DNA from: a virus
Length of the DNA: 17,730 bases
Direction: 5' to 3' (one strand)
UHGV virus genome: UHGV-1681856
Under the pieces are notes generated by a model, which saw only the letters and a list, made by a program, of their open reading frames with translations, was not told the DNA's origin and searched no databases. Numbering within the stretch: position 1 is the stretch's first letter; each line of letters opens with the position of its first letter. Positions 646-15,188 of this stretch are shown here, in pieces. Position numbers and translations under genes: made by a program.

Positions 646-961
646 TTTTATTGTCTATTGCGATTAATTTAAAGTCTTTTGATGCAAAATTATCCGAAGT
701 GAGTAAGGTTTCATCATCTTCGCAGAAAAACATAATGTCAAAATCGATAGAGTATGGAAGCCCTATGATCGGGGCGTTTGTCATGCATGGGCGACCAGCG
801 CAAATAAGCTCACCATCCTGAGTGAAAACATCAGCAAAGATTTTGCCATGACGCGCCGTGAGCGTGATTTTTATAGAAAAATCGCCGATTGTTGCTGTAA
901 TTTGCTGCCTGCCGACTTTTTCTATCGATATTTCGTAAAACTCTGCCATTTTATAACCCAA
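638..961 (-). CDS. Hypothetical tail-associated protein (107 aa)
   Basis: ORF packed between neighbours with short overlaps (start overlaps the upstream stop region at 951..961). No recognisable motif; function from synteny only. Confidence 0.4.
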   Translation of the reverse strand: MGYKMAEFYEISIEKVGRQQITATIGDFSIKITLTARHGKIFADVFTQDGELICAGRPCMTNAPIIGLPYSIDFDIMFFCEDDETLLTSDNFASKDFKLIAIDNKNA

Positions 962-1547
962 ATGCCGATTTAACTTTTTTGCCGACGTTGGCTAATTTGC
1001 TTGCAATCTGACTACTCGTCTTTTTTATTCCCTGCTCGGTGTTTAAATCGATGATTTTTGTCTGAACAAGTCTAATCTCTCTAAATGTCAGCGAGCATCT
1101 AATCAGTCGTTCGGTTCCACCGGCGGCTCGAAGGTAGCTATACCCGGTAATGGCGCAATTTGTGTAGACAGTTTCGGGAGTTACTATCGTGAATAAACTT
1201 GTAGAATTTGCAAGTGCTTCAATCTGGCTCAGAAAAGCAGAGCGACCGACCGTGCCGCCGGTCGACTTGATTAAAGACACTGAGACATCAAAGCCGCCGG
1301 ATACTTTGTTCAGACTACCAAACCCACCCGCTTCGATTGGGTACTGCGACACTTGGGAATTTGAAGAGTATTCAACGGTTTCAACGGAATCCACAAGCAG
1401 AAGCGGGATTCCGTTTTGATTGTAGATACCCCATTTTTCGCCGAGTATCAGATTTGTAAGCTGACTGCCCGCGAAGGATAAGATGCTATTCGTTAGCCCA
1501 TTCCCCAGTCCGGGGATTTCGGGGAATCCGATGGATGACCATTTCAT
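951..1547 (-). CDS. Hypothetical tail protein immediately downstream of tape measure (198 aa)
   Basis: ATG overlaps the tape measure stop (ATGA-type 4-bp overlap at 1544..1547), suggesting translational coupling. Position matches the distal-tail/baseplate-initiator slot of contractile-tail phages. Confidence 0.45.
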   Translation of the reverse strand: MKWSSIGFPEIPGLGNGLTNSILSFAGSQLTNLILGEKWGIYNQNGIPLLLVDSVETVEYSSNSQVSQYPIEAGGFGSLNKVSGGFDVSVSLIKSTGGTVGRSAFLSQIEALANSTSLFTIVTPETVYTNCAITGYSYLRAAGGTERLIRCSLTFREIRLVQTKIIDLNTEQGIKKTSSQIASKLANVGKKVKSAFGL

Positions 1548-3220
1548 CTTATTGACCTCGAATGCTGTGCGATGCTAGAGGATAGGGCGCGGCCCATATC
1601 GTTACCAGTTCCAGACATTGTACTTGAGGATGTCGAGACGTTGACGCTATTAATGTTTACCACGTTACCGCCGGCTACAGAAGAGGGTGGAGTGGAGTGG
1701 GATAGGGATGGGATGGAAATGCCGAATTTCGGCAATTTTGCCTCGCCAATCGGAGTTCCGTGAACATGATATGCGTTTCCAGTTCCGAATTTGTATCCAG
1801 TGGCGGCAGATTGTTGCTCTGCCTGTCGAACCCATCTTTTTGTTGCGGCAGATGCCTGCCCAAGGAAATTCGGGTTGGCGTAATGAGTATTCCCGCCGAT
1901 AGTTGACTCCATGCCTGCATTCCTCGCTCTCAAGTGGGCAAGCACGGAAGCGCGAAGGCGCGGAGAGACTCTGGACATCGGGACATTTTGCACCGTTCCG
2001 TAAACCCTCCCACCGCCTTTGAGTCCGGCGGGGTTGTTAATTGCACTGAATGCCCACTTCTGGTTAATAGCGCCCCTGACCGAGCCCTGATACGCAGCAC
2101 GGTTCAGAATTGTATCCACGACGCCACCCACTTGCTTTTGGTACTCAGATTGATTTTTGAGCGGAGTTACTTCCGTTGCCGAGACCCTTAGAATGTCGTC
2201 AATGTCTTGCTGAGACAGAATGAGCTTTCCGTTTTTAAGTCCAGTTGTCCTTCTGTTTCCGTATTGACCATTTGTTGTGCGGGCTGGGATTGCGGACGCA
2301 GATGGGGATGTCGAAGAAACCTTTTCTTTCACCCAGTTTGCGGCTTTTGATGTCGCGTTTCTAATTCCGCCTGTCGCTTTTGACAGTGTATCGTTTTTCT
2401 TCCCGAGAAAGCTATTTATGATTTCTGCAAATGTAGTCAGCGCTGGGATGATTGAGTTGCCGAGCGTAGTGGCCATGCGCTCAAGCTGAATATTCAGCTT
2501 CGCTTTGTTCTCTACAAGCTTTTTCGACTCTTCAATGTCTTTTTCCGATGTCTCGGCGGCGGATTCACTTTCTTTTAATAGTCTTTCGGCCTCACTGCGC
2601 CCGCGGACGAGCATGTTGAAAGTGCCATCGTCAATACCCATGCCTTGCGCGATTTGATACGCTTGTTGACGGTCCATTTTGCTAAACGCATCCGACAAAT
2701 CAAGCATGACGTCATTCAGTTTGCGGGCCTTGCCGTCTGCATCAAGCATTGATACGCCGATTGCATTAAAGAACGGAAGCATTGAGCTGTCGCCCTTCAT
2801 TTGCAAGTCATTCATTGCTTTCGACATCGCGGCTAGAGAGTTTTTTGCAGAATCAGCATTGCCGCCAGCCATCTCCACGGCATAAGACCATTTTTTAAGC
2901 TCGGTGGCCGACACACCGATATTCGCGCTGAAATCACCCGTACTGGCGTTTGCGCTTGCAATCTTCGTTCCAAGAGCAATGAGGCCGGATATAGCCCCGA
3001 CGGCGGCCACACCAACGGCGACCACGCCGCTGGCTAGTGCGCGGGAACCTTTTGCAGCGCTGGCCGCACCGCTACCGATTGAAGAAAACGACTCCTCAAC
3101 CGAGACGGCCTTTTTCTTTGTTCCGTCAAAACTCTTTTCAAGCTTTTTAGCTGACTTGTCGTACTCTTTTGTATCAAGCCCGATTTCTACATATAGTTCG
3201 TCAACCTTATGACTGGACAT
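1544..3220 (-). CDS. Tail tape measure protein (558 aa)
   Basis: Largest ORF of the tail module, directly downstream of the chaperone and its frameshift extension. Low-complexity Ala/Gly/Ser-rich and predicted helical segments with a hydrophobic stretch (VVAVGVAAVGAISGLIALG), typical of tape measure proteins. Confidence 0.7.
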   Translation of the reverse strand: MSSHKVDELYVEIGLDTKEYDKSAKKLEKSFDGTKKKAVSVEESFSSIGSGAASAAKGSRALASGVVAVGVAAVGAISGLIALGTKIASANASTGDFSANIGVSATELKKWSYAVEMAGGNADSAKNSLAAMSKAMNDLQMKGDSSMLPFFNAIGVSMLDADGKARKLNDVMLDLSDAFSKMDRQQAYQIAQGMGIDDGTFNMLVRGRSEAERLLKESESAAETSEKDIEESKKLVENKAKLNIQLERMATTLGNSIIPALTTFAEIINSFLGKKNDTLSKATGGIRNATSKAANWVKEKVSSTSPSASAIPARTTNGQYGNRRTTGLKNGKLILSQQDIDDILRVSATEVTPLKNQSEYQKQVGGVVDTILNRAAYQGSVRGAINQKWAFSAINNPAGLKGGGRVYGTVQNVPMSRVSPRLRASVLAHLRARNAGMESTIGGNTHYANPNFLGQASAATKRWVRQAEQQSAATGYKFGTGNAYHVHGTPIGEAKLPKFGISIPSLSHSTPPSSVAGGNVVNINSVNVSTSSSTMSGTGNDMGRALSSSIAQHSRSIR

Positions 3221-3449
3221 TTGTCAAACTTTCGTAATGTTTATTAAGTAGGTATTCGTTAAACGATGATATACAAACAACATCCCATAAATTAAGCGCA
3301 TCTTCGTATGAATAGACCGTCTGGAGCTCGTGCAGGGTGCACATTCTAGATGCAACAAGGCCGGATATTACTCGCGTCAGATTCTTGTTTTGAATCTGCC
3401 TGCACGGAACTTCAGTTGCGATAATATCCGGCGCTCGACGGCCAATCAG
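3207..3449 (-). CDS. -1 frameshift extension of the tail assembly chaperone (80 codons; G-T-like fusion product of about 227 aa)
   Basis: The -1 frame relative to the chaperone is open for 80 codons from the slippery site to a TAA at 3207..3209, which overlaps the tape measure ATG at 3220. Translated by hand: LIGRRAPDIIATEVPCRQIQNKNL...NKHYESLTNVQS. Confidence 0.6.
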   Translation of the reverse strand: MIGRRAPDIIATEVPCRQIQNKNLTRVISGLVASRMCTLHELQTVYSYEDALNLWDVVCISSFNEYLLNKHYESLTNVQS

Positions 3450-3889
3450 AAATTTATATGAATCATGAATGCATCAAAGCGAAGCTTCCAAAATGTCCGG
3501 AAATCCTCGATGTCGCCCAAATCGTGGCTGATTGGACGAGCGCGGCCGCCGTCGGGAATGAACTGAACGCAACTTAAAAGCTCATCTAGAATCGGGATTG
3601 ATACAGACGATGGAACCATTCCGAAAACATTAAAAGACGCATTCAACAGGCCGATAACACCATCTTGAGGGTCAATTTCTTTAAGTGCCGCTAAGTCGCC
3701 GACACTCTCAATCGCAGTGCCAGTTGATTCACTAATGAAATTCGTCAGGCTGACACCGGAGCTTGCAATGGCGGAAAGCATTCGCATGGCGAGGTGGTCA
3801 AATTTAAAAGCGGGCATTTCAGTGATTAGAAACTTCTTGCCTGCGTCGCGTCCTTTTTCAATAACGACTACTTGTTCTTTGAGTGCCAT
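3446..3889 (-). CDS. Tail assembly chaperone (147 aa), zero-frame product
   Basis: Sits between the tube and tape measure genes, ends with a slippery heptamer, and has an open -1 frame downstream. This matches the lambda G/GT and P2 E/E+E' arrangement. Confidence 0.6.
   Translation of the reverse strand: MALKEQVVVIEKGRDAGKKFLITEMPAFKFDHLAMRMLSAIASSGVSLTNFISESTGTAIESVGDLAALKEIDPQDGVIGLLNASFNVFGMVPSSVSIPILDELLSCVQFIPDGGRARPISHDLGDIEDFRTFWKLRFDAFMIHINF
3449..3455 (-). promoter_or_regulatory. Slippery heptanucleotide A_AAT_TTC (X_XXY_YYZ) for programmed -1 ribosomal frameshifting
   Basis: Minus-strand sequence ...ATA AAT TTC TGA; the heptamer AAATTTC sits immediately before the chaperone stop codon. 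Confidence 0.6.
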
Positions 3890-4328
3890 TACGCAATTTC
3901 CTCTTCTGTAATACTATCGATATCAAAAACAAATGTACCGGCCGACACCATATTTTGAACGGTCAATCCAGCAAACGATGTCATAAACCCGCTGAACGTC
4001 TGCCGGATTTTAAGCCCCGGATGCTCGATAACAAAGTCAAACACATAGGCGTCTTTTTGAGACTTCATTGCTTGATAGCAGTTTGTCAGTGCTGCACGCG
4101 AATTTGAGTTTGCCTCTAAGTCGATTGTCATTTTTGGAGAGCCGAAAACAAAGCCACCAGACAAGATGCCGTCAACACCGCGAACGGTTACGCCGACATC
4201 GGTATCTGAGATGCTGATTGCGCTGTCTTCTTTGAAGCCTTCAAGCTTGACGTATGTGTCAGAATATCCGCGCGCCTTCCAGAGAATCGTCGCACCCGAG
4301 CCGGACAATAATTTATCAGAAATAGCCA
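3889..4328 (-). CDS. Tail tube protein (about 146 aa)
   Basis: Small ORF between the large putative sheath gene and the chaperone. I place the start at the ATG at 4328, which is preceded by AAGGA (minus strand TAAGGATTTAAAAATG), rather than the upstream GTG at 4353 used by the ORF track. Confidence 0.5.
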
Positions 4329-4382
4329 TTTTTAAATCCTTAAATAGCCGCACTAATTAGAATACGGCTATTTTATTGAAAA

Positions 4383-5870
4383 TTACAGAACGTTTGTAGA
4401 AGTTACGTTGATTGCGATAAGCGAGCCGCCATCTGTATACCAGAATTTAATCGGCATAGATTGACGGGATTGTCTAATCTGTGGAGTTGCATCCCCGATG
4501 TGAACATAAAAGCCGTTCGCATAGATCTGAGACGCCGCATCAATTCCGGTATCCGCGTTGATTTGCGCAGCCTGAAGATTTGACAGCTTAACACCGCTTC
4601 TAATTGAACCGAAATTAAGGGCCTCATCAATTACATCTTTCATTGCCGCGCGAATGTAGGCCTTGCCTTCGGAGTTGTACGGGATGGATTTAACATTCAT
4701 CAGCATCTCAACGAGCATCAGTTGGAACTGGGAGTTAATGCGGATTTGGTTGATATAGTTGTCAATCCATTTAAACGAGCCTGAAACTTGGCCTGGGTAG
4801 AAGCTGAGGAATCGGTCGGCCGCCGTTGCCCAAGCCCCGTAAAAGTTGTATCCGTTTTCAATAAGCCTGTTCGCTTCAGATTGGTTTGTAACGTCGGCAG
4901 CTAGGCCGTCTTGGCGTCGGAACGCATAGTTAATCCTGCCGTTTCGCTCCGACCAGTCGACGGAAGCGATGGCGCCGGCGAGGAATGCGGCTTTTTTGTA
5001 CCCCTCATTGCGTTTTGCATAAATCAATGCAACGCCGTTCAGGTTGATGTTTTTAATTTGCGCGCCGAGTGATGAATTTGAACCTGTAAGCGCATCATCG
5101 TTTTCATCCCACAGAATAGTGAGGAATCGCTTATTACTGTCATTTGCCCAGTTGGCGGCAATCAGCTTGACGGGATTTGACAAGTTTACAAGCGGCACGA
5201 GCGAAACCCAGTTCTGATTAGACGCTTTGATGTTGTTCAGAATGTCATAAATCGAAATAGCCGCACGGCCGGGTACGTTAATTGTCGAGCCGAGCGTAAG
5301 GCCGAGATAACCCGATGCGGCGTTTTCAGTGAACGAAATAACTTGACTCGGTCCGGATGCTTTTGTGGAGATAACGAGTTGAGAGGTTGTCTCATTGTAC
5401 GCAGCATTCACATCGAAAGCAGTTGAGATTGCGGAGGCCAAATCCGTGAACGTAGAAATGGCCGCAATCTTGTCGGCGGTAAGTTTTTTTTCAACGCCGG
5501 AAATGCTTGCAATCAAATCTGTTTTTGAGCGTTTTGCATTATCGAGCGAATAAGGGCTCACCTGCGCACTGTAAACGCGAGCGCCGATTTCTTGCGGGTT
5601 GTATTTGTAGAAGTGAATAAGACCGGGCTTCCGAGATGAATTTTCGTACCCATTAAAATACGCCGCCGCCGCCTTGTACTCAATAGAGTTTGTGCCGAAA
5701 ACCGCCGCCACGTCATCAGGATTGGAATAGCTGACTACTTCGTTATCGGGGATAAGTTCGGAATACGATAAAAACATGCCATTAAATGACAATGCATTGC
5801 CACCAGCCGAGAGTACGGCGGGCTGTACATTGACAATCATTGATGCTGGAATAGATTTAAATGTCGCCAT
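4383..5870 (-). CDS. Tail sheath protein (495 aa)
   Basis: Size and position directly upstream of tube, frameshifting chaperone and tape measure match the sheath slot of contractile-tail phages. No motif verified. Confidence 0.5.
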   Translation of the reverse strand: MATFKSIPASMIVNVQPAVLSAGGNALSFNGMFLSYSELIPDNEVVSYSNPDDVAAVFGTNSIEYKAAAAYFNGYENSSRKPGLIHFYKYNPQEIGARVYSAQVSPYSLDNAKRSKTDLIASISGVEKKLTADKIAAISTFTDLASAISTAFDVNAAYNETTSQLVISTKASGPSQVISFTENAASGYLGLTLGSTINVPGRAAISIYDILNNIKASNQNWVSLVPLVNLSNPVKLIAANWANDSNKRFLTILWDENDDALTGSNSSLGAQIKNINLNGVALIYAKRNEGYKKAAFLAGAIASVDWSERNGRINYAFRRQDGLAADVTNQSEANRLIENGYNFYGAWATAADRFLSFYPGQVSGSFKWIDNYINQIRINSQFQLMLVEMLMNVKSIPYNSEGKAYIRAAMKDVIDEALNFGSIRSGVKLSNLQAAQINADTGIDAASQIYANGFYVHIGDATPQIRQSRQSMPIKFWYTDGGSLIAINVTSTNVL

Positions 5871-6411: not shown

Positions 6412-6770
6412 TTATCCCACATTTCCGGCACGGCCACGACTTTCCATCTATTTCTGCCGTTCTCGTCGCTACCGTAGCCTTTAAACACAATTTCCGCTTG
6501 GCCCGTATTATTCAGCCTGTCCAAATCTTCAACCCTACCGTCAATGTACACAGACAGAAGCTCGGATTGCTGGTACATGCCATTAAGAATCTGGACATCA
6601 GACCCCGTGGCCTGCTGGGTTTGGACTGTGATTTCGACTTGGCGGAACTCAAGTTCCCTGCTTCCGTCGTCTGCTGTTGTGTATCCGATGGGGATGTAGA
6701 GCCACGCCTGACGGTTTTGGTTGATTGTTGACGTTACAGAGTTTGCGAACGCCCTTAGATTGATTGTCAT
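6381..6770 (-). CDS. Hypothetical neck protein (129 aa)
   Basis: Co-oriented ORF with a 4-bp overlap to the upstream gene (6767..6770). Synteny only. Confidence 0.35.
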   Translation of the reverse strand: MTINLRAFANSVTSTINQNRQAWLYIPIGYTTADDGSRELEFRQVEITVQTQQATGSDVQILNGMYQQSELLSVYIDGRVEDLDRLNNTGQAEIVFKGYGSDENGRNRWKVVAVPEMWDKWCRIIVCRQ

Positions 6771-7195
6771 CTCTTAACTCTCCACGTTACCGATCGCGCC
6801 ATCGTTGAGGTATCAATGAGGGGGTTATTGAACCCCTTTTTTGCAACTGTCGATGGGGCGTTCGGCGGGTCGTCCAGTTTCACAATCTCTTCTTTGATTT
6901 TGTTTACTGTGAACTCACCGAGAAACGAGAGAACCTTCTCGACAGGTGCGCCGGAACTCATAAACTTGCCGGCAACTCTGGAAAGCTGATTGCCGTGATT
7001 GGCGAGAGTAAGGCGCATAAAAGGGCGCGGCGGGATTTTGTCCGTACCGTACTCGTTGTAGTACGCGACCTGCGCCACATCTGTTCCATCTGCGTACTTT
7101 GCGCCGTCAACAAATCCAACTTGCAGATTGCCTGCATCTTTAAAATCTGCCGACAGCTTCGCAACTCCGACTGAAAACTTATTCCCGCCTCGCAT
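6767..7195 (-). CDS. Virion morphogenesis / head-tail joining protein (Mu gpG or HK97 gp10-like, 142 aa)
   Basis: Contains PPRPFMR and DPPNAPSTVAKKG...NPLIDTSTMARSV, which resemble motifs I recall from head-tail joining / virion morphogenesis families. Position just after the capsid block fits. Confidence 0.5.
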   Translation of the reverse strand: MRGGNKFSVGVAKLSADFKDAGNLQVGFVDGAKYADGTDVAQVAYYNEYGTDKIPPRPFMRLTLANHGNQLSRVAGKFMSSGAPVEKVLSFLGEFTVNKIKEEIVKLDDPPNAPSTVAKKGFNNPLIDTSTMARSVTWRVKR

Positions 7196-10672: not shown

Positions 10673-11419
10673 TTAAAGAATTTCCAAAACTGATTGAGAG
10701 AGGCATCGACATCCGTACTCCAGTCCGGGCTTTGTCCACTTGCCTTCAAGATAAGCCCCTTTTCTAATGTCATACTCCTTTCCATCGAATGCCAAATGCT
10801 CGGGACGGGGTGTTTTCCCGGCGTGTGAGTGCATCCATATTGCCTTTGTGATTCCGAGTGATTCGCGGCGCGCATCTTCGAGAATCGTTGTGGCGTAGTG
10901 GATTTGATTCCGGGCCAGCCTTTCAGCCTGTCTTTGTTTAATTCCGATGATTTCTCGGAATGCTTTTGACAGCTTCTGAATGTCAAATCCGGATGTCACG
11001 GAGTCGATGATTAAGTCCGAGGTCTTCTGTACGCCATAATCGACAAACTTCGCCACTTCTTCTGTATTCCTTGCAATCAGCGCTTGGACGGCGTCGTTCA
11101 TAAACTCGTCATACGGGAAGTCGACTTTAATGCTTGCCGCATCCTTGATTGACTTACCCATAATCTTGTCATTTGAGGCCATGACTTTCATTACGGCCCA
11201 GCGAACAGGTTCAGACAGCTTGTCTTTCGGTATCTCATGGCTACGACGCAGAGAAAGAATCGCATCGATTGCATCTGACTTTCTACCGAAGTGGCCGATA
11301 GACACGGCCTGTTTTGAAAACTGCAAGATTGCATTCTTTGCAAGTGTGTTTACTCGCTTAAAGTAACCGCGCTGCACGCCTGCATTAACCTGCGTTGGGG
11401 GTAGGATTATCTTTGCCAT
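10673..11419 (-). CDS. Phage Mu F-like minor head (head morphogenesis) protein (248 aa)
   Basis: C-terminal region WMHSHAGKTPRPEHLAFDGKEYD...GCRC resembles the Mu F / SPP1 gp7 head morphogenesis domain. Lies immediately downstream of the portal gene, as in Mu and SPP1. Confidence 0.65.
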   Translation of the reverse strand: MAKIILPPTQVNAGVQRGYFKRVNTLAKNAILQFSKQAVSIGHFGRKSDAIDAILSLRRSHEIPKDKLSEPVRWAVMKVMASNDKIMGKSIKDAASIKVDFPYDEFMNDAVQALIARNTEEVAKFVDYGVQKTSDLIIDSVTSGFDIQKLSKAFREIIGIKQRQAERLARNQIHYATTILEDARRESLGITKAIWMHSHAGKTPRPEHLAFDGKEYDIRKGAYLEGKWTKPGLEYGCRCLSQSVLEIL

Positions 11420-12839
11420 TACTTAGTCCTCTAATGATTTCATCGAACTCATCCGCATCGTCTCGTTGAACTTCGGGATAAATTGGCCGTTCCTCGGCAT
11501 CTAGTGAGCCGCGAATATCGTCAGAGCTTGCTGCGCCAACACTGGCGTACGCAACATGCATTCTGGATTTAATCTCTTGAATCTCGGCTTCTTCGCGTTC
11601 TGACATACTCATCAACGGATTGAAGATGAAATCAGCGTCATCTGTCCCGAACTCAGACATCTCAATCTGAGACAAAAGCCTTTGAATGAGGGGAAGTAGG
11701 CAGTTGTCTTGAATCCCTGCGATGAAGTCGTAATAGACCTTAATCTCGCCATCGCTCGATGCATTGAGGCCGGACGGCGTGATTCCGAGAAGTTTCACGA
11801 GCGGCACGCGAGCAACGGCTGACATTTGCTCTTGAGTCTGTCTAACTAAGTCAGCGATGCCGGAGAGCGGCGTAGCGAACTGGAAGAACTCTTCAGTTTC
11901 TTTGTTTAGTAACAGTAAGCCTCGATTATCACGGAATTTATTGAACAACTCTGCGCGCATTGTGAGTGCATTTACATCATCTTCCTGAAGCGAAGACATC
12001 ATGTCTGTCTTGATGCCTGACACAGAGTATGATTTCAACAAGTCTGCGGATGATTCAACGGCATTGTGCCAACGTCTAACGTACGGCCACATCACCTGAG
12101 TAAGTGAAATTCCGTGCATCTGATACATCGGCTTAATCATATCCACGACCGGGAACGGTACGACGTGAAGCAGATGGTCATGATGAACTTCGCGTGCCAT
12201 TAAGTACCATTTGTCGGGGTTGTACCAAGATGGTGACAAGGGGTTTGCCGTGTCGTATGAAATCGGGTTTGCGTAAATCCCATCAATCACAATCAGCTTT
12301 TTGACTTTTGATTCGCCACTCAGCGGAAGCCTCTCGTCGACGTTCGTGTTGTCAGTAAGCGATGCGGACATCAAAACCATCGAGCCGCCGTAAAACAGAC
12401 TAGAGACGAGGGCGTCACGGAATATCTTTCGTGCATTCAGTTTTTTAAGCTGATTAGTCAGAAACTCTTTGACTTCAGGGTTTTCGTGGCTTACCTCCCC
12501 CCACTCCCTGAGCGAATCGGAACTGATTGCATCTACCGCGGCGCGAATCTCCGGGATTTGGCTAAGGGAGGAGAGGGCTTGAAAGCCAATGAACCCGAAG
12601 TTCGCGGAACCTGTTTCTGCATAGCCCGCATTCAGCAAGCCGGCGGCGGACATGGCACAGGAGTCGGAAAGAGAGCTGCGGCCAACGCCGGCCACGGGAT
12701 TACGAACGCGGGCGGCGGAAAATCCGTCGAATTCGTCATTTTTAGCATTTTGTGCTAATTTCCTATACAGGGAACTTAGCATAATCTGCTTCTTTTCTTC
12801 CTTCTCTTGCTGTTTTCTGCTAAAAAACCGTTTAAACAT
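11385..12839 (-). CDS. Portal protein (484 aa)
   Basis: About 55 kDa ORF starting 3 bp after the large terminase stop and followed by the Mu F-like gene, the canonical portal position. Acidic C-terminal tail. Confidence 0.7.
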   Translation of the reverse strand: MFKRFFSRKQQEKEEKKQIMLSSLYRKLAQNAKNDEFDGFSAARVRNPVAGVGRSSLSDSCAMSAAGLLNAGYAETGSANFGFIGFQALSSLSQIPEIRAAVDAISSDSLREWGEVSHENPEVKEFLTNQLKKLNARKIFRDALVSSLFYGGSMVLMSASLTDNTNVDERLPLSGESKVKKLIVIDGIYANPISYDTANPLSPSWYNPDKWYLMAREVHHDHLLHVVPFPVVDMIKPMYQMHGISLTQVMWPYVRRWHNAVESSADLLKSYSVSGIKTDMMSSLQEDDVNALTMRAELFNKFRDNRGLLLLNKETEEFFQFATPLSGIADLVRQTQEQMSAVARVPLVKLLGITPSGLNASSDGEIKVYYDFIAGIQDNCLLPLIQRLLSQIEMSEFGTDDADFIFNPLMSMSEREEAEIQEIKSRMHVAYASVGAASSDDIRGSLDAEERPIYPEVQRDDADEFDEIIRGLSNGKDNPTPNAG

Positions 12840-14813: not shown

Positions 14814-15188
14814 ATGAAGATGAAATCCAGAAGACTGTTGCTACCCTACCCAATCAGTGCAAATAGGTATTGGCGGGTGTATCGTGGCCGGGTTATTCAA
14901 TCTCGTGATGCAGGTCTATACAAGCGAGATGTGGCAAAACTTGCAAAAGCATCGGGAGTTGAGGTGATACATGGGAATGTTGAAGTAAAAGTAACGCTCA
15001 GGCCGAAGATGACAAAATCAGGCGTTGAGTATAAAAAGCGTCTTGACTTAGATAATTGCCTGAAGGTGGTGTTGGATAGCTTAAACGGCGTGATGTATGA
15101 AGATGATTCGCAGATTGTTGCAATCTCTGCGCATATTGGGGAGGGATTGCCGCTCGGGGGGGTTGACGTAGAGGTTATTTATAGTTAG
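14814..15188 (+). CDS. rusA: RusA-like Holliday junction resolvase (124 aa)
   Basis: N-terminal LPYPISANRYW and acidic cluster LDLDNCLKVVLDSLNG match the RusA family signature (conserved Asp residues). Size is typical. Confidence 0.8.
   Translation: MKMKSRRLLLPYPISANRYWRVYRGRVIQSRDAGLYKRDVAKLAKASGVEVIHGNVEVKVTLRPKMTKSGVEYKKRLDLDNCLKVVLDSLNGVMYEDDSQIVAISAHIGEGLPLGGVDVEVIYS

Follow-up and report, generated by a model that had tools for sequence, protein, structure and literature searches.

The viral genome sequence UHGV-1681856, whose 17,730 nucleotides make up the window analysed here, very probably uses a programmed -1 frameshift of the G/GT type in its tail module to produce two proteins, the 147-amino-acid tail assembly chaperone G and a 227-amino-acid fusion, GT. 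Support for this reading comes from synteny, from a slip site conserved across the family, from a -1 frame that stays open downstream of G, from purifying selection on the extension encoded in that frame (T), and from a predicted RNA structure downstream. On these same grounds the original prediction, which had proposed a conserved G/GT-type recoding event from the letters of the window alone, is borne out.

All coordinates of the chaperone module refer to the minus strand of the window. The open reading frame (ORF) of G occupies 3446..3889, starts with an ATG at 3889 and ends with a TGA at 3448..3446, giving a protein with the C-terminus ...MIHINF. Its 3' end reads CAT ATA AAT TTC TGA, split in the zero frame as ATA/AAT/TTC/TGA. 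The slippery heptamer AAATTTC (3449..3455) lies here in the register A_AAT_TTC, with Asn146 in the P site and Phe147 in the A site, and no spacer separates it (3455..3449) from the TGA; position and codon register, read afresh from the sequence, agree with what had been proposed. Overlapping with it is an alternative shift site, T_TTC_TGA at 3446..3452, which would put Phe147 in the P site, with the stop codon occupying the A site. G contains two in-register heptamers, and AAATTTC is the only one that falls within the 25-nucleotide overlap having an open -1 frame.

A TGA at 3474..3476 in the -1 frame restricts a productive shift to the final nine codons of G. From 3473 the frame is open down to a TAA at 3209..3207. 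The extension T itself (3207..3449) comprises 80 codons, from CTG at 3449..3447 through TCA at 3212..3210, followed by this TAA. Adding 80 residues to 147 gives the predicted GT product of 227 amino acids, with the junction ...MIHINF-LIGRRAPD... and the predicted tryptic junction peptide FDAFMIHINFLIGR; our codon count matches the exactly 80 codons and the product of about 227 amino acids first suggested. One detail needed correction. The TAA had been said to overlap the ATG of the tape measure gene (3220..3218), but it lies 11 nucleotides past that ATG, the two ORFs overlapping by 14 nucleotides.

Could such an arrangement have arisen by chance? In-register heptamers of the form XXXYYYZ occur at 0.0039 per codon in the 20 genes of the window, and the chance of finding one within the eight positions permitted by the 25-nucleotide overlap is ~3%; that of an 88-codon stop-free run at the base composition of the window is ~1%. 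It is the comparative data on relatives that rule out a chance origin of the site and its open frame.

Related loci were gathered by protein-guided scans, which yielded 124 loci, ~105 of them distinct, from viral contigs, from genomes of Neisseria, Mannheimia, Providencia, Xenorhabdus, Snodgrassella, Oligella, Acinetobacter and others, and from isolate phages. The -1 frame is open for 44-80 codons beyond the stop of G in all of the ~105 distinct loci; stop codons in that frame, which would have spoken against the original prediction, do not interrupt it there. Of 105 loci, 99 have an in-register T_TTT_TTN where the H-x-D-F-L codons align, and three distant loci carry G_GGT_TTY, in the same register as A_AAT_TTC of the window. 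Many relatives have a -1-frame TGA immediately 5' of the heptamer. As to conservation in related phages, then, the open frame is shared by the family, whereas the particular heptamer A_AAT_TTC is missing even from the closest relative. The placement of the shift site directly against the stop codon, noted from the outset as a variant, is real and peculiar to this clade: in relatives, for which T_TTT_TTR is the norm, 4-27 zero-frame codons separate shift site and stop, and among the loci examined only the clade of the window has a zero-frame stop directly after the Phe codon. That this placement may enhance slippage, as was suggested with it, is hypothetical. Alignment and codon tables identify this Phe codon of the window as the positional homologue of the P-site codon in T_TTT_TTR.

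Conservation of the encoded peptide begins at the same point. The -1-frame peptides of the relatives align family-wide from the slip residue onward and share the motif N-[LV]-x-x-x-I-G-x-L-V-S-x-R-x-x-T-L-H-E-L-Q-T-V-Y-x-x-E-D-A. A profile built from the relatives only matches the window with 68 bits and an E value of 1.8e-17 (calculated with Z = 10^6) over profile positions 1-77 of 79, and it is the -1 frame alone that matches. The junction F-L-x-x-R of GT is kept across the family, the Leu being supplied by a zero-frame TTR codon in relatives and by a -1-frame CTG or TTA codon in the clade of the window. When the fused 227-residue sequence was used as query, the homologue search returned G-length matches only, with no in-frame natural fusion and, at that database size, no matches to T; blastn against phage records found no relative at the DNA level. 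Among annotated protein families, G matches phrog_1932 'tail assembly chaperone' (E 8.5e-34), the T peptide on its own matches phrog_3976 (E 9e-12), and PHROG family 18181 spans the predicted junction, covering residues 127-217 of the fused protein. The G/T pair sits between the tail tube and tape measure genes, as in chaperones of the G/GT type.

A closer view is afforded by L004, which shares 87% amino-acid identity with the window in G and is the sole other variant of the clade in the collections searched; scans of viral and metagenome collections, by exact pattern and with close-relative proteins, found no further members. Where the window reads CAT ATA AAT TTC TGA, L004 reads CAC GTA AGT TTT TAA. 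Between the two, the T frame shows 15 synonymous codon changes and 3 non-synonymous ones; the corresponding counts for the other frames are 2/15 and 0/16. Even the first codon of T, which overlaps the stop of G, changes from CTG to TTA, Leu to Leu, as the stop goes from TGA to TAA. This pattern of substitution indicates clear purifying selection on T from the slip site onward. One of the three non-synonymous changes creates a stop two codons early in L004 (CAG to TAG; L004 ~3670..3690, compared with 3207..3220 of the window) and leaves the overlapping tape measure protein unchanged (TCC to TCT, synonymous in that frame). From this early stop we take the final two residues of T to be dispensable, and the overlap to be constrained by the tape measure gene. 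The AGT-to-AAT difference gives the window its canonical heptamer, one codon upstream. The elements that are conserved are T_TTY at the Phe codon, the immediately following stop (a feature of this clade alone) and a stable RNA structure downstream. A step from T_TTT_TTA to T_TTT_TAA would have required one substitution, making a stop while keeping the Leu, and the zero-frame tail of G, which is poorly conserved, is on the simplest reading dispensable.

The downstream stimulatory structure that the original prediction suggested looking for is probably provided by a stable predicted fold. The 104 nucleotides from the TGA onward have a minimum free energy of -36.1 kcal/mol and a z-score of -3.2, and 1 of 200 shuffled sequences was as stable. 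The predicted structure (3356..3437) consists of a bulged stem of 19 base pairs, 3437..3418 with 3375..3356, which encloses a hairpin of 7 base pairs at 3398..3378; the stem begins 8 nucleotides after the TGA. L004 gives the same predicted fold with a z-score of -3.0. Four of the six differences between the two sequences in the folded stretch lie in unpaired loops, and an AG-to-GA double change shifts a bulge while the pairs are kept.

Many relatives likewise have a hairpin, of 9-16 base pairs, that starts 6 nucleotides past T_TTT_TTR (e.g. L063 2872..2933, L092, L076, L094, L107 and L103); the mean z-score downstream is -1.37, compared to +0.05 in control segments inside G. The sequences of these stems vary by subclade, GGCGGUGG... 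in one and GGCAGUUCCCC... in another. RNAalifold, run on 19 relatives, did not recover the hairpin, the stems of two subclades being out of register in the alignment. Pairs were counted instead for one named structure in one subclade: for this hairpin of 16 base pairs, 89.6% of cells are paired, versus 26-45% with the partners slid, and covariation is modest.

How would the two products arise? Most ribosomes would terminate at the TGA and release the 147-residue G. A minority would slip back by one nucleotide at AAT TTC and read the -1 frame for 80 codons to yield GT, probably stimulated by the stable RNA structure downstream. Two routes are conceivable, and both would make an identical protein. 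In the first, tandem slippage on A_AAU_UUC and the likelier of the two in the window, tRNA-Asn would re-pair with AAA instead of AAU, and tRNA-Phe with UUU instead of UUC. In the second, one step later, the UGA would already stand in the A site and the peptidyl-tRNA-Phe would slip from its UUC onto UUU. Favouring the first are the true heptamer in the window and the minor part that slow A sites generally play in -1 shifting: heptamers of the class to which A_AAT_TTC belongs, R_RR.U_UU.Y, are frameshift-prone in E. coli (Sharma 2014, PMC4066793), and a slow A site counts more for +1 than for -1 shifts (Atkins 2016 review, PMC5009743). The spacing of the stem fits the second, as does the homologous position of the Phe codon and the P-site codon used across the family. 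By analogy with lambda, where G and the G part of GT bind the tape measure protein and T recruits tube subunits (PMC5009743), the G part would bind the tape measure protein, the T part would recruit tail tube subunits, and the frameshift would set the ratio of G to GT.

Several observations weigh against a G/GT-type frameshift at this site as we have described it. L004 is without a canonical heptamer, its sequence being A_AGT_TTT TAA, just T_TTT and then the stop. Just two sequence variants of the clade are present in the collections searched, and covariation within its own structure needs more. The distance from the heptamer to the stem, 11 nucleotides, exceeds the usual 5-9, a minority of known cases having 12-15 (PMC5009743). 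Searches of G, T and GT against Pfam and NCBIfam gave nothing useful, G being without any match there. For G, furthermore, a sequence-profile search against the PDB had no match, and Foldseek found nothing significant in the PDB for an AlphaFold2 model (predicted local distance difference test, pLDDT, 76), the HK97 chaperone scoring E 0.9. Our placement of G in the chaperone class follows from synteny, recoding anatomy and homology to annotated relatives, rather than from likeness to lambda gpG. From the state of L004 we conclude that A_AAT_TTC is not strictly required, or is not the sole functional element, and that L004 itself is limited to the tetramer route.

A rival reading, less likely than not, is a -1 'shifty stop', in which a single peptidyl-tRNA-Phe would slip in the P site on U_UUC (U_UUU in L004) with the stop codon in the A site, to the same product, the A_AA of the window being incidental or a booster. 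In both variants, T_TTC_TGA in the window and T_TTT_TAA in L004, a stop would fill the A site and the P-site tRNA can re-pair one nucleotide back, in the -1 frame; L004 has kept T_TTT and TAA while lacking the heptamer. That the Phe codon is homologous in position to the P-site codon of T_TTT_TTR points the same way, as do the single substitution that would lead from T_TTT_TTA to T_TTT_TAA with the junction Leu kept and the 8 nucleotides between stop and structure, near the 6-nucleotide spacing of the relatives. Among E. coli tetramers, U_UUC and U_UUU rank second and third as the most shift-prone (Sharma 2014, PMC4066793), but there the tetramers were scored with a sense codon next, not with a stop in the A site. 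Slow A-site decoding is, moreover, more important for +1 shifting, and the report of a -1 case in potato virus M is treated with caution (PMC5009743). The window also has a genuine heptamer, and sites of that length as a rule shift much more efficiently than tetramers (PMC4066793); the stop differs between the variants, TGA versus TAA, which leaves no room for release-factor specificity.

Carrying this account further, one may speculate that the zero-frame stop has become part of the recoding signal in this clade: a single T-to-A change would have turned T_TTT_TTA into T_TTT_TAA, Phe-tRNA would then slip while awaiting the release factor, aided by the structure 8 nucleotides downstream, and the A_AAT of the window would be a later, compensatory gain of a heptamer. 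We regard this scenario as doubtful. If it were true, the ratio of G to GT would depend on termination kinetics, and the clade would provide a natural bacterial-virus case of stop-dependent -1 frameshifting with a visible evolutionary path between types of shift site.

Might T instead be a separate small gene with its own start codon, made with no frameshift at all? The annotation of its counterparts as 'hypothetical protein' in the phages Scipio (Scipio_00028) and Acjo_20 (ACL7BA_000045) would suggest as much, and the window does contain an ATG-initiated ORF of 45 codons at 3344..3207. We nevertheless hold a separate gene to be very improbable. The ATG of 3344..3207 has no Shine-Dalgarno sequence, and initiation there would lose conserved residues, NLTRVISGLVAS for instance. 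Among relatives the T frame has its first canonical start codon at any point between codons 1 and 53 (codon 35 in the window), a variability that makes independent initiation of T unlikely. Both protein conservation and synonymous change reach the slip site, including the codon that overlaps the stop of G, and the slippery heptamer stands in register in 99 of 105 loci, often right after a -1-frame TGA.

The T region is a separate 'hypothetical protein' or unannotated in Scipio (L003 2947..3159), in Acjo_20 (L002 3025..3186) and in L001. All three loci bear an in-register T_TTT_TTA or T_TTT_TTG, and the GenBank annotations of T in these genomes are probably incomplete.

Transcriptional slippage, by which RNA polymerase would add a nucleotide in a homopolymer run and place some mRNAs in the T frame, is extremely unlikely in view of homopolymer runs of only 3 nucleotides. 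Long A/T runs can support such slippage (discussed in PMC5009743), and relatives do carry runs of 6-7 T at the site; the window, though, has only AAA and TTT triplets and L004 a T5 run, and runs of 3 or 5 nucleotides are far too short for productive slippage. A conserved hairpin 6 nucleotides downstream fits ribosomal frameshifting instead. The idea that the break in frame stems from faulty assembly or sequencing, or marks a pseudogene, with G and T being one in-frame or decayed gene, could appeal to the derivation of the window from a metagenome assembly, but is effectively refuted by the identical sequence in the independent assemblies L005 and L006 and by the same frame arrangement in more than 100 loci, complete isolate phage genomes among them.

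Family matches identify the window as the structural module of a myovirus, in the order small and large terminase, portal, head morphogenesis protein, protease, major head protein, neck and terminator proteins, sheath, tube, G, T, tape measure and a Dit-like protein. The tail sheath gene (4383..5870, minus strand) matches DUF3383 (E217_gp31-like) with E 1.3e-98 and phrog_205 'tail sheath' with E 1.2e-85. Directly upstream of G lies the tail tube gene (3889..4353, minus strand), which matches phrog_1964 (E 2e-32). As the PHROG label reads only 'virion structural protein', its identity as a tube gene is drawn from a weak Pfam match to E217_Gp32 (E 7e-5, under the curated cut-off) and from synteny with annotated relatives, the gene at the same position in phage Scipio carrying the annotation 'tail tube protein'. 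The tape measure gene (1544..3220, minus strand; 558 amino acids) matches PHROG tape measure families with E values down to 2e-49. Between G and the tape measure gene is an apparent gap of 226 nucleotides, in which a terminator scan found no terminator; the lone promoter-like match in 3000..4500, at 4034..4007, lies upstream of G, and such matches are no more frequent than in shuffled sequences.

G of this clade has an insertion of ~22 residues around SESTGTAIESVGDLAALKEIDPQ (3650..3750, minus strand; residues ~48-80) that is absent from all other aligned homologues, and in the AlphaFold model pLDDT falls below 50 at residues 67-81. In its C-terminal half, the tape measure protein weakly matches Cell Wall Hydrolase (Hydrolase_2, E 0.014, residues 367-467). 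This half also matches PHROG families that bear the names 'lytic tail protein' and 'tail fiber protein/lysozyme'; these matches suggest that 1544..3220 may carry a peptidoglycan-degrading domain. In-register heptamers of the sequence A_AAA_AAG in the genes at 6767..7195 and 951..1547 (both minus strand) were considered as further recoding sites and rejected, the -1 frame being closed there; each lies 69 nucleotides before its stop, the open overlap with the gene end measures only 4 and 16 nucleotides, and they are probably not recoding sites. The portal gene (11385..12839, minus strand) and the subsequent head-morphogenesis gene (MuF/SPP1 gp7-like; 10673..11419, minus strand) overlap by 35 nucleotides if the first ATG of the latter is used. 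PHROG family 30637 (1119 amino acids) matches both portal and protease, a hint that some relatives may encode fused portal/protease versions. Three genes on the opposite, plus strand (14814..15188, 16007..17137 and 17187..17648) lie upstream of the terminase genes and encode a RusA-like resolvase, a 376-amino-acid protein with weak resemblance to adhesin-like proteins and to large unknown phage proteins, and a MazG-like nucleotide pyrophosphohydrolase. Scans of the whole window for tRNA genes and Rfam families gave no matches.

For annotation, the consequence of a G/GT-type frameshift is that the apparent 226-nucleotide gap is coding and that the 227-residue GT should be annotated as a joined coding sequence. 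Many related genomes call for the same amendment, among them Acinetobacter Obolenskvirus phages in which T is entered as a separate hypothetical protein. Conserved G/GT recoding (Xu, Hendrix and Duda 2004) is already annotated in this protein family, for BcepB1A. The local peculiarity, a shift site flush against the stop combined with an altered heptamer, matters chiefly for annotation, its mechanistic interest being modest. The window and L004 do amount to a small natural experiment, with the same frame, product and downstream structure, and a canonical heptamer in one versus T_TTT and the stop only in the other; the contrast could show how much a flanking stop adds to -1 slippage in bacteria. 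Otherwise this is a textbook feature without new biology.

Lambda is not known to need a 3' structure for its G/GT frameshift; in the window a strong one is predicted. As in lambda (Levin, Hendrix & Casjens 1993; Xu, Hendrix & Duda 2004, 2013, 2014; cited in PMC5009743), two ORFs lie between the tail tube or major tail gene and the tape measure gene, the heptamer is in register and the T ORF ends at the start of the tape measure gene. Lambda uses G_GGA_AAG with five sense codons before the stop of G, whereas the window has A_AAT_TTC with none. The window, moreover, belongs to a contractile-tail phage, and its G has no detectable similarity in sequence or fold to lambda-type chaperones. With 'shifty stop' systems (Weiss et al. 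1987; prfB and antizyme, both +1) the site shares a stop directly 3' of a slippery codon whose tRNA can re-pair, but the well-established cases are +1 shifts, the -1 case of potato virus M being regarded cautiously (PMC5009743).

Comparable systems occur in other contractile-tailed phages, P2 with its E/E+E' pair and the Pakpunavirus/Andersonviridae group, in which a T-rich slippery sequence at the end of the chaperone gene is followed by an open -1 frame through a region routinely mis-annotated as intergenic or as a hypothetical gene. The P2 heptamer is T_TTT_TTG. In Pakpunavirus/Andersonviridae the chaperone frameshifts occur on poly-T (GTTTTT; PMC12846349); in contrast to these myoviruses, the clade of the window has lost the T6 run. 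A further known system is gp15 E/gp15' E' of Burkholderia phage BcepB1A, which has the same gene order and a homologous T domain (tblastn, 38% identity, E 2e-5), and which is annotated as a 'pre-tape measure frameshift protein' with a -1 shift at the aligned T-run T_TTT_TTC. Unlike the window, BcepB1A retains a long zero-frame tail past the shift site, from the end of the heptamer at locus position 1483 to the end of G at 1591. Its heptamer is the T-run typical of the family, while that of the window differs, lies one codon upstream and stands flush with the stop.

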